DNA from: a virus
Lineage: Duplodnaviria > Heunggongvirae > Uroviricota > Caudoviricetes
Direction: 5' to 3' (one strand)
Length of the DNA: 1,783 bases
IMG/VR virus record: IMGVR_UViG_2537561709_000015
Shown here one piece after another: positions 622-1,783 of this stretch. Both the position numbers and the translations under genes were made by a program. The notes beneath the pieces are model-generated. The model worked only from the letters and a program-made list of their open reading frames with translations. It was not told the origin of the DNA and did not search any database. The number at the start of each line of letters is the position of its first letter. Positions within the stretch are counted from its first letter, which is position 1.

Positions 622-1035
622 ATGGCAACGAATGAAAGCATCATGACGCTACCGCTGGCGAGTAAATTTAAAGTCGAAGCGCGGGCAATGGCTGACAGAG
701 GTTTATCAACCTATGAGGCCGTATATCAACTAAACAAACTGGAAGAGCAGGACAAGCCGTGCGCTGATGCGATTATGGCGCTTCATGAGCATAAAGACTA
801 TCAGCCGCTGTTGCGTGCAATGGCAAACGTGCCTTGTATCGATGTTGGTACGGCTAAAAGCATCCTTAGCATGACCATAGAGCAGGAACGTCCGAAGGTT
901 GCGCCGGAACTTACCGCAGCCTTTGAAAACTTTATGGACATGCACAGCCCGCAAGCCGTATCAGCTGGCATGGCATACGATGGCAGAAACCAGGGCGATG
1001 ACGGCGACATCGATCGCATACTGAAAACCATCTGA
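622..1035 (+). CDS. Hypothetical protein, 137 aa, function unknown; operonic with the capsid and decoration genes
   Basis: Intact ORF starting 12 nt after the gpD-like stop, with the same GGGGGA-type Shine-Dalgarno (613..618) as the preceding gene, and followed by a hairpin plus T-run terminator. I recognise no family. It has an acidic C-terminal segment (DGRNQGDDGDID). Confidence 0.6.
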   Translation: MATNESIMTLPLASKFKVEARAMADRGLSTYEAVYQLNKLEEQDKPCADAIMALHEHKDYQPLLRAMANVPCIDVGTAKSILSMTIEQERPKVAPELTAAFENFMDMHSPQAVSAGMAYDGRNQGDDGDIDRILKTI

Positions 1036-1040
1036 GACAA

Positions 1041-1063
1041 GGCCGGAGAAATCCGGCTTTTTT
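1041..1063 (+). terminator. Putative rho-independent terminator
   Basis: Perfect 6-bp stem GCCGGA (1042..1047) / TCCGGC (1052..1057) with a GAAA loop, followed by TTTTTT (1058..1063), starting 6 nt after the stop of the 622..1035 ORF. Confidence 0.55.
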
Positions 1064-1129
1064 ACGGGTCCTTCCTGGAATTATGGCCCGTTACGGGGCG
1101 GCGACCTCGCGGATTTTCGCTATTTATGA
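1064..1129. other. cos site core: lambda-like cosQ-side flank, cosN and the conserved right flank
   Basis: acgggtccttcctggaattatggcccgttacg-GGGCGGCGACCT-cgcggattttcgctatttatga aligns with the recalled lambda cos junction ACGGGTCCTTTCCGGTGATCCGACAGGTTACG-GGGCGGCGACCT-CGCGGGTTTTCGCTATTTATGA. By my count the left flank matches at about 22 of 32 positions, the 12-nt core at 12 of 12 and the right flank at 21 of 22. Confidence 0.8.
1096..1107. other. cosN 12-nt cohesive-end sequence GGGCGGCGACCT
   Basis: Exact match to the lambda 12-nt 5' cohesive end as I recall it, in the expected position upstream of a Nu1-like terminase gene. Confidence 0.8.
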
Positions 1130-1139
1130 GCCTTTTCAG

Positions 1140-1154
1140 GGTGGTGGTGGTGGT
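1140..1154. repeat. (GGT)5 trinucleotide tract, continuing into a G/T-rich run to about 1165
   Basis: Sequence ggtggtggtggtggt followed by tttgttgtttg, read directly from the window. Confidence 0.9.
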
Positions 1155-1201
1155 TTTGTTGTTTGATCTATCTTTATGAATGAAAAGGGAAAGATGCAAG
1201 C

Positions 1202-1239
1202 AATACACCAACCTGAAGCAGTAATTAAGTTGGTGTATT
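1202..1239. repeat. Perfect 11-bp inverted repeat AATACACCAAC (1202..1212) / GTTGGTGTATT (1229..1239) with a 16-nt spacer
   Basis: The two arms are exact reverse complements. The right arm ends 1 nt before the ATG at 1241. Confidence 0.9.
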
Positions 1240-1240
1240 A

Positions 1241-1783
1241 ATGAAATCTCATCTGATGAACAAAAAAAACATGGCGAAAAGCTGCCGTGTAAGTGCGACA
1301 GCGTTCGACAAGTGGGGAGTAACTCCCGTTGAGCGTAAAGGCCGTGAGGCGTTTTATGATGTTGCCAGCGTGATAGAAAATAGGGTTAACAATGCAATTA
1401 GCCAGCTTATAAACGACAAAGGCGAGATTGACGATGATGAACTTTTACGAGTCAGGATCAGATTACTGACAGCACAGGCAGAGGCGCAGGAACTTAAAAA
1501 CGATCGCGATCGCGGTGACGTGATTGATACTGAGTTTTGCCTGTACGCGCTTTCAAAGCTGGCGAGTCAGATTTCATCAATCATGGACAGCCTCCCGCTT
1601 ACTATGCAAAGGAGCTTCCCACAGATTACCCCCGCCATGCTGGACAGGCTTAAAAGGGAAGTGGTTAAAGCCTGTAATGCCAGTGCCAGAGTTGCCGACA
1701 ACCTCCCACAGATACTGGCTGATTACTTGAAAGAAACAACCGGAAACGTACCGGAAAAGTTGCTACAGAAGAAAGGCGAGTAA
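1241..1783 (+). CDS. nu1: Terminase small subunit (lambda Nu1-like), 180 aa; the true start may be the in-frame ATG at 1256
   Basis: Translation contains LTAQAEAQELKNDRDRGDVIDTEFCLYALSKLASQISSIMDSLPLTMQRSFP...LKREVVKACN, resembling recalled lambda Nu1 (LTRAQADAQELKNARDSAEVVETAFCTFVLSRIAGEIASILDGLPLSVQRRFP...LKRDIIKAMN). Lambda Nu1 is 181 aa, and the gene sits directly downstream of a lambda-type cos. Stop TAA at 1781..1783. Confidence 0.88.
   Translation: MKSHLMNKKNMAKSCRVSATAFDKWGVTPVERKGREAFYDVASVIENRVNNAISQLINDKGEIDDDELLRVRIRLLTAQAEAQELKNDRDRGDVIDTEFCLYALSKLASQISSIMDSLPLTMQRSFPQITPAMLDRLKREVVKACNASARVADNLPQILADYLKETTGNVPEKLLQKKGE

Follow-up and report, generated by a model that had tools for sequence, protein, structure and literature searches.

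The stretch of DNA analysed here, referred to below as the window, comprises 1,783 nucleotides of the IMG/VR virus record IMGVR_UViG_2537561709_000015, which is assigned to Caudoviricetes. Between positions 1064 and 1240 it carries a cos site, composed of cosQ, cosN and cosB, and the gene that follows immediately, terS, encodes a small terminase subunit (TerS). In this work, we describe the site and its gene, place them in the chromosomal island to which they belong and consider how they may make use of the large terminase subunit (TerL) of a helper phage. Many chromosomes of Escherichia coli O157:H7, O55:H7, O145 and O26 agree fully (100%) with the window from its base 48 onwards. Positions within the site are also given in bp, where bp 1 is the first base of the cohesive end and corresponds to window position 1096. 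The features are as follows.

1039–1063, plus strand: terminator-like hairpin and T-run closing the Nu3-like gene (ViennaRNA fold of 1036–1066, −14.1 kcal/mol, followed by TTTTTT)
1066–1072, plus strand: cosQ, GGGTCCT, the packaging-termination element, which starts 30 bp upstream of the cohesive end with 23 nt between
1090–1113, plus strand: cosN nicking site, with flanks GTTACG (1090–1095) and CGCGGA and the cohesive end GGGCGGCGACCT at 1096–1107
1108–1130, plus strand: cosN right flank, bp 13–35, CGCGGATTTTCGCTATTTATGAG, corresponding to the I2 region of lambda and 21
1140–1163, plus strand: R3-like box, (GGT)5TTTGTTGTT, with the core GGTGGTGGTTTTGTTGTT at bp 51–68 (1146–1163); predicted binding site of the island TerS
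1201–1217, minus strand: R2-like inverted box, CAATACACCAACCTGAA (reverse complement TTCAGGTTGGTGTATTG), an inverted partial copy of TTCAGGGTGGTG at 1135–1146, 11/12 complementary
1226–1239, plus strand: R1-like direct box, TAAGTTGGTGTATT, which abuts the terS start codon and forms a perfect 11-bp inverted repeat with 1202–1212
1241–1783, plus strand: terS, encoding a full-length Nu1-family small terminase of 180 amino acids, in which a putative winged-helix DNA-binding domain resembling that of N15 is followed by a variable, TerL-binding-like C-terminal domain

The left part of the site is of lambda type. cosQ agrees in sequence and spacing with that of phages lambda and 21 and of the neighbouring O157 prophage, and it was found in 80/82 IMG/VR loci. 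The 12-nt cohesive end matches lambda, 21 and phi80 at all positions (12/12), and bp 13–34 (1108–1129) are identical to lambda at 21 of the 22 positions; at the place of this right flank, an IHF site, I2, is annotated in phage 21. An earlier note on this DNA, made from the letters alone, had described a lambda-identical cosN core within 1064–1240, and that description was borne out; its coordinates bracket the whole cos site. In the O157 genome itself, cosQ, cosN and the flank of the island match those of a lambda-type prophage located 22 kb away. Seven E. coli alleles (84–100% DNA identity) and three satellites of Enterobacter/Citrobacter were aligned over cos; the invariant blocks are cosQ, cosN, CGCTATTTATGAG within the right flank, and the box at bp 51–68, with cosQ and CGCTATTTATGAG unchanged in 10/10 sites. 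As cosQ, cosN and the right flank copy those of lambda-like helpers, a helper TerL should be able to nick this site, make its ends and terminate packaging there.

Beyond the flank, ungapped identity to lambda is 12/26 over bp 35–60, 19/40 over bp 61–100 and 14/45 over bp 101–145. Gapped local alignment of 1130–1240 with lambda cosB, judged against 300 shuffles, gave z = −0.03 and 0.55 on the two strands, and homology of this segment to the lambda R3/I1/R2/R1 array was rejected on these values. The same shuffle test gave z = 0.84 and −0.19 for phage 21 cosB, and 0.64 on the forward strand for phi80 cosB, with one short reverse-strand match lying outside the R boxes. R boxes of lambda, 21 or phi80 type and the IHF site I1 are absent from 1130–1240, and no IHF consensus with at most one mismatch occurs in 1108–1240. 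When the segment is compared with cosB of other TerS-type satellites, the similarity is strong (z 9.5–11), and in a BLASTN search against 50,697 phage records window positions 1059–1141 alone align. The statement that the DNA from about 1130 to the ATG at 1241 is unrelated to lambda cosB therefore holds, and the proposed alignment to the cos regions of lambda, 21, phi80 and N15 yields a helper-type core followed by a cosB that is unlike the first three and whose R3-like box resembles that of N15.

Over the satellites, this R3-like box takes the form GGTGGTG(G/T)T(T/G)TTGTT, or GGTGGTGGT(T/G)TTGTT, at bp 51–68, and in the window two further GGT units precede its core. The pattern is unique in the window, with a chance expectation of 0.01. 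On either side of the box the aligned sequences have diverged, while the box itself is invariant across genera even though the satellite TerS proteins share as little as 57% identity. Its register is fixed as well. A pattern scan of IMG/VR, in which the spacing from flank to box was left free over 13 values, returned 110 contigs; all 82 pattern matches (82/82) have a spacing of 15 nt, which puts the box at bp 51 in 81/81 loci analysed. The complete downstream open reading frames (ORFs) encode island-type TerS in 77/77 cases, with 54–100% identity, and a TerL-sized ORF follows terS in 0/26 loci with at least 2 kb of downstream sequence, so that the satellite terS is always an orphan. Position 60 of the box co-varies with the recognition helix of TerS: T is found with CRVSATAFDKW in 69 loci and G with CKVG[VI]TAFDKW in 7.

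In N15, the R3 box is GAGGTTGTTGTT at bp 48–59, of which GTTGTT at bp 54–59 matters most (PMC4669245). The box described here has GTTGTT at bp 63–68 and (GGT)n at bp 45–59. Both are triplet-periodic G/T sequences in near-identical places, which points to related sites.

Two further elements lie between the R3-like box and the gene. Within the R2-like box, CACCAACCTGAA is 100% conserved over 30 unique cos arms, a conservation that the search pattern did not force, and the box is partly kept in Enterobacter satellites; judged from this analysis, it may act as an element of cosB. The direct R1-like segment GTTGGTGTATT (1229–1239) is less conserved than the R2-like box and is kept only in part in other alleles (AAGTGGGGATATTG). 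Its inverted repeat folds with −14.5 kcal/mol, and this weakest of the three boxes could instead serve to control the transcription or translation of terS. The order direct/inverted/direct, with about 53 bp from the R3-like to the R2-like box, recalls R3/R2/R1 of lambda, and the private cosB probably comprises the R3-like box together with the inverted R2-like and direct R1-like boxes. A scan of the window found no inverted rR2-like copy of the box inside terS.

The product of terS is a Nu1-like protein, as the earlier note had suggested. It matches the Pfam family PF07471 (Phage_Nu1) with 82.6 bits (cut-off 30, E 3.2e-23) and phrog_57 over residues 1–174 (8e-53). Its closest characterised relative is gp1 of N15 (44% identity, E 2e-51), followed by lambda Nu1 with 36%, and among the 50,697 phage records no TerS closer than 44% was found. 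In the DNA-binding domain, 27/50 residues (54%) are identical to N15 gp1, against 15–18/50 (30–36%) for lambda, 21 and phi80, and the domain shares with N15 a short wing and the motif AFDKWGV.PVE..GRE.F.DV.SV. In the recognition helix, two or three residues are not those of N15 (SATAFDKW in the island TerS, SVQAFDKW in N15). The central self-association region, residues 66–125, is the part most similar to phage TerS proteins (45–60% identical), and somewhat more than 40 residues at the C-terminus can be aligned with the end of lambda Nu1 that binds gpA. An AlphaFold model of low confidence (pLDDT 62) has the order strand, helix, helix, strand, strand, helix, which fits a winged helix, and its best Foldseek match, a weak one, is the winged helix of RacA on DNA (E 0.088). 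A PDB sequence search with TerS matched neither Nu1 nor RppC.

Both the protein and the cutting site are exchanged in modules. The ratio of nonsynonymous to synonymous divergence (dN/dS) of terS is 0.13–0.21, which indicates purifying selection. Synonymous divergence (dS) is 1.0–1.4 in the C-terminal domain versus 0.23–0.27 in the DNA-binding domain, a difference that indicates exchange of the C-terminal module by recombination; in E. coli alleles, 47/50 residues are identical in the DNA-binding domain and 24/43 in the C-terminal domain. In a satellite embedded in a lambda-type prophage, the C-terminus of TerS is identical to that of the helper Nu1 at 19/43 positions (44%), and for the O157 allele the figure is 13/43 (30%). 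On the DNA side, nine cohesive-end variants occur with the same box and TerS, namely GGGCGGCGACCT in 57 cases, GGGCGTCAGGCG in 8, GGGCGGAAGGCG in 4, and others. The variant GGGCGTCAGGCG also adjoins lambda-type cosB and Nu1 in phage contigs, and GGGCGGCAGACG is likewise carried by an island of the Rpp type discussed below. With nine cohesive ends joined to one kind of box and TerS, cosN appears to track the cutting enzyme of the helper, and cosB the satellite's own protein.

The carrier of the unit is a 10.4-kb island in the roxA-phoQ interval of many O157:H7 strains, including PV15-279 and TR01 (annotated regions L001 and L149). All of its genes are oriented on a single strand. The early part holds a tyrosine integrase, a short alpA-like helix-turn-helix regulator, Icd-like genes, a RepA-type helicase, SSB and PerC; the later part holds a lambda-E-like capsid gene, a lambda-D-like decoration gene, a 137-amino-acid gene, cos, the 180-amino-acid terS and a 93-amino-acid gene. 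No TerL, portal, tail or lysis gene is present among the annotated genes. Judged from its gene anatomy and synteny, the island is a Gram-negative phage-inducible chromosomal island (PICI) of the EcCICFT073 type; it shares the attachment (att) site and gene order with EcCICFT073 (L003), where the slot after cos is occupied by rppA. Of 5426 complete E. coli genomes, 757 carry the cosB/TerS unit, among them most of the O157:H7-like genomes sampled, and TerS homologues with 57–58% identity lie within the same capsid–decoration–cos–terS module in Enterobacter, Citrobacter and relatives. In the same set of E. coli genomes, the RppA/B-type unit was found in about 100, a comparison that is partial because O157 is oversampled and the RppC-type islands are too divergent for the DNA search used.

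A second, inverted cos (cos2) lies about 140–190 nt past the right end of the window, on the minus strand (L001 16737–16975, about 16927). Its cosQ–cosN is identical to that of the window; the cosB after it is tripartite in the manner of lambda, and on the minus strand its R boxes, CAGATCC(G/T)(A/T)TCT, are ordered direct/inverted/direct. EcCICFT073 also has a cos2, with 21-like ATGTCCGG boxes, and the cos2 of two satellites bears another cohesive end, GGGCGGGAGCAT. For several satellites in which cos1 and terS are retained (L014, L018, L008 and L011), no cos2 turned up in the first 1.5 kb after terS.

We therefore consider it likely that 1064–1240 is the functional cos of a classical Gram-negative PICI, equivalent to cos1 of EcCICFT073, in which a helper-type cosQ/cosN is joined to a private cosB that is predicted to be read by the island's own TerS, with a helper TerL being recruited. 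This reading draws on the anatomy of the site, the homologies and the conservation of the box in a fixed register, on an orphan terS carried by a satellite, and on the observation that cosN and the C-terminus of TerS are exchanged as modules. The earlier note had raised the same possibility, a satellite that uses the large terminase of a lambdoid helper while keeping its own recognition; this is favoured by the island without TerL, the orphan terS and the finding of nine kinds of cohesive end, one or more of them in common with lambda-type phages. Its comparison with a packaging-specificity variant stands as far as the same cutting site and a different small-subunit recognition are concerned, and fails in that the locus is not a bona fide phage variant like 21.

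Under the proposed mechanism, the island would replicate as concatemers upon induction of the helper. Island TerS would bind the private box or boxes through its N-terminal winged helix of the N15 class, and its C-terminal domain would recruit a gpA-type TerL of the helper. This enzyme would nick the helper-type cosN at 1096/1107, giving 12-nt cohesive ends, and would later terminate at the next suitably spaced cosQ–cosN, so that concatemeric island DNA may be packaged in preference to helper DNA. We infer from the features described above that TerS would bind the box, that it would recruit helper TerL directly, with no helper TerS involved, and that the island would interfere with the helper. 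Since the helper TerS finds no R boxes on the island, and the island TerS none on the helper, packaging of the island would be private and would probably compete for TerL.

Several observations weigh against this interpretation. The C-terminal domain of the O157 TerS is just 30% identical to that of Nu1 in the adjacent lambda-type prophage, and the nearest phage C-terminus, that of PhiR5_1 (49%), belongs to a terminase type present in 41 genomes, of which none is labelled O157 among the 40 matches listed. The structural model of TerS is of low confidence, as its pLDDT of 62 indicates. The covariation of helix and box spans two lineages only, and the inverted cos2 with its phage-like tripartite cosB, just outside the window, could also serve packaging. 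Finally, the box is offset by 3–9 bp from the N15 R3, depending on the alignment, and the recognition helix is changed at two or three positions; for this reason, the assignment of the private cosB to the N15 recognition class, suggested by sequence, is to be understood as a family resemblance and not as identity. Comparison of the TerS C-termini thus did not single out a cognate helper TerL.

A broader form of the interpretation may be offered tentatively. The unit could represent a third, uncharacterised kind of cos-type piracy, in which a full-length TerS of the N15 class acts on a GGT/GTT box and recruits TerL directly, bypassing the TerS of the helper, in which cosN and the TerS C-terminus are swapped independently and track the helpers, and in which the box of Rpp-type islands, ACCACCACC, is the same element flipped, through shared descent. 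As a whole, we consider it somewhat less likely than not. The proposed mechanism itself has a precedent in lambda-N15hy4, a viable hybrid phage with N15 cosB in which the DNA-binding domain of N15 is joined to the C-terminal part of Nu1 and which packages by means of lambda TerL (PMC4669245); it shows that such a fusion is able to drive lambda TerL at N15 cosB.

The strongest of the competing explanations is redirection of the Rpp kind. In EcCICFT073, Rpp binds the helper TerS, and the complex reads the island cosB and not the phage cosB (PMC6092414, PMC6739421). By analogy, the island TerS could form mixed dimers or oligomers with the helper TerS, such that the mixed complex reads the private cosB and the helper subunit contacts TerL. 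The precedent comes from the same slot of a sister island (PMC6739421), the similarity of residues 66–125 to phage TerS makes mixed oligomers plausible, and the O157 C-terminal domain matches the neighbouring prophage Nu1 poorly (30%). However, the island TerS is full length and its C-terminus aligns with the gpA-binding end, whereas the Rpp proteins, 135–153 amino acids long, are without the last 30–40 residues (PMC9026076). The C-terminal domain is moreover under purifying selection and exchanged as a module, which suggests that it is used, and TerS has no similarity to RppA in BLASTP (E 3.4). We regard this route as unlikely, although it is the alternative that survives best.

A role of 1130–1240 as nothing other than the promoter, operator and leader of terS, with packaging through cos2 or through weak, cosB-independent use of cosN, appears improbable. 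It would be in keeping with the lambda-style R3/R2/R1 set of cos2, with the perfect 11-bp inverted repeat adjoining the ATG and with the low-level packaging of EcCICFT073 cos plasmids in the absence of Rpp. The GC-rich hairpin directly 5' of cosQ likewise bears on it: transcription of the capsid module should stop before cos, and terS would then need its own promoter, within 1108–1240, or antitermination. The same hairpin element precedes cos1 in EcCICFT073, and a consensus scanner scored no terminator in 950–1300, though the hairpin and T-run are visible at 1039–1063. Against such a purely regulatory role stand the exact distance between box and cosN in 81/81 loci and the resemblance of the box to the mapped N15 R3. 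Furthermore, a sigma-70 scan of 950–1300 gives no promoter, several satellites that retain cos1 and terS yielded no cos2 within 1.5 kb downstream, and in EcCICFT073 it is cos1 and not cos2 that is needed.

A further reading, by which the site would be that of a true lambdoid phage, intact or decayed, whose packaging specificity is a third one and stands to lambda as that of 21 does, is highly improbable: the layout cosQ–cosN–cosB–terS is formally phage-like and both N15 and the 'Monarch' prophages are phages with this recognition class (PMC4669245), but TerS never exceeds 44% identity in the 50,697 phage records, a TerL-sized ORF follows terS in 0/26 loci with enough downstream sequence, the contexts examined are without exception 10-kb satellites, located at an att site of their own or in a late gene of a prophage, and in the 757 genomes that carry it the unit is conserved and shows selection. 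The dN/dS values and this distribution led us to reject a decaying prophage remnant in particular.

The roxA-phoQ att site itself is occupied differently among O157:H7 lineages. Sakai (L147, 1594711–1610171) and EDL933 hold the capsid-forming PICI EcCIEDL933 (Sp7/CP-933C) there, and the TerS-type PICI is present in PV15-279, TR01 and many others; the site can thus be taken by either of two island types, and identification of the present island with O-island 51/CP-933C was rejected. Other satellites reside within helpers. Satellites of 10 kb with the cos/TerS module were found inside the major capsid gene of a lambdoid prophage in Enterobacter/Citrobacter-type contigs (L008–L013, TerS at 10001), and in an E. 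coli urine isolate (L014, TerS at 12117) such a satellite sits inside a prophage portal gene. In the published description of one helper-embedded PICI, terS is lacking. A search for related loci in species-representative genomes with TerS as a single-protein query returned nothing. In E. coli F765 and O157:H7 DEC4E, the satellite terS is split by an insertion of the IS3 family (IS1203-like), which would inactivate the packaging module.

Upstream of cos, the 137-amino-acid gene (window 622–1035) matches the C-terminal end of the head maturation protease profile phrog_53 (positions 495–567 of 583, E 4.7e-9), which corresponds in lambda gene C to the Nu3-like scaffold portion. Together with the E-like capsid gene and the D-like decoration gene it makes up a capsid/scaffold/decoration trio in the satellite, and in other alleles the slot of the 137-amino-acid gene is filled by an AlpA-like helix-turn-helix protein of 127 amino acids. 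Over bases 1–47, the window is identical to gene E, for the capsid, of the lambda-type prophage that lies at icd in these O157 genomes, and from base 48 it is identical to the capsid gene of the satellite. This junction occurs in 0/5426 complete E. coli genomes, so the source of the window is either a recombinant of helper and satellite capsid genes or an assembly chimera.

PICIs are vehicles of virulence and defence genes among enterobacteria, and the phages by which they can be spread depend on their packaging specificity. The Rpp route is the only one worked out for cos-type E. coli islands, and the TerS-type unit was several-fold more frequent (757 versus about 100 genomes, with the sampling limits given above). 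The occurrence of a terS homologue in some PICIs was mentioned in passing (PMC6092414); we found no published study of this TerS type in open-access papers and bioRxiv, and the variant, although common, is apparently unstudied. The box at a fixed distance offers a precise candidate for a recognition site, and the natural series of cosN and C-terminal swaps is suited to the study of TerS–TerL and TerL–cosN matching. In addition, the private pair of cosB and TerS may be useful for engineered PICI-based delivery particles free of co-packaged helper DNA.

The combination of helper cosQ/cosN with a foreign cosB was already published for EcCICFT073 (PMC6092414, PMC6739421, PMC9026076), where cos1 is needed for transfer and its cosB sets the specificity (PMC6739421). 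The general pattern is therefore a known satellite strategy, and the site described here is that chimeric design with a different, full-length, N15-like TerS and its box. Compared with the EcCICFT073/Rpp system (Fillol-Salom 2018, 2019; Murialdo & Feiss 2022), the island family and the roxA-phoQ att site are the same, as is the order of capsid, decoration, 137-amino-acid gene, cos, specificity gene, inverted cos2 and 93-amino-acid gene. The logic is shared too, with a helper-like cosQ/cosN, a cosB unreadable to the helper TerS and a specificity protein right after cos. The differences lie in the specificity protein, a full-length Nu1/N15-type TerS of 180 amino acids here versus an Rpp of 135–153 amino acids that has a winged-helix domain and lacks the TerL-binding C-terminus, and in the position of its ATG, at bp 146 here versus about bp 102.

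The cosB sequences differ as well. Murialdo and Feiss proposed an "R3-PICI" at bp 48–65, with bp 55–63 identical in four islands (PMC9026076), and the box provides a handle on this proposal: read on the other strand, its GGTGGTGGT core gives ACCACCACC (R3-PICI bp 55–63), at a nearly equal distance from cosN. In local alignment with the flipped core, window 1140–1157 corresponds to L003 17611–17628 and L024 about 322–339 (z = 4.3). Either chance in a triplet repeat or the flipping of a common box could explain the match; RppA and TerS are unrelated in sequence.

With N15, which has a single-R3 cosB and gp1 (Feiss et al. 2015), the island shares the relationship of TerS to gp1 (44% overall, 54% in the DNA-binding domain), the shortened wing and a related R3 (GAGGTTGTTGTT versus GGTGGTGGTTTTGTTGTT here), about 50–68 bp from the cohesive end. 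It differs from N15 in the offset, GGT-rich box and in the recognition helix, SATAFDKW in place of SVQAFDKW. N15 has an inverted rR2 inside the gene, and the island terS has no such copy; the island, in turn, has the lambda cohesive end and no TerL gene, and it is a satellite where N15 is a phage. For the 'Monarch' prophages a tripartite cosB has been reported, which the probable direct/inverted/direct layout seen here resembles.

The relation of lambda to 21 offers another parallel, as their cosQ/cosN are identical, the R boxes of cosB and the TerS recognition helix differ, and the TerS C-terminus sets the TerL partner; unlike the island, which carries the small subunit and the site only, both are complete phages with their own TerL. 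Among other satellites, the pac-type Staphylococcus aureus pathogenicity islands (SaPIs) SaPI1 and SaPIbov1 use a small terminase of their own to redirect the helper large terminase, and P4 and SaPIbov5 copy the cutting site of the helper. In contrast to these, the island joins both tricks in one cos site, its Nu1 family is unrelated to the TerS of SaPIs, and a Ppi-like partner is not evident in it.

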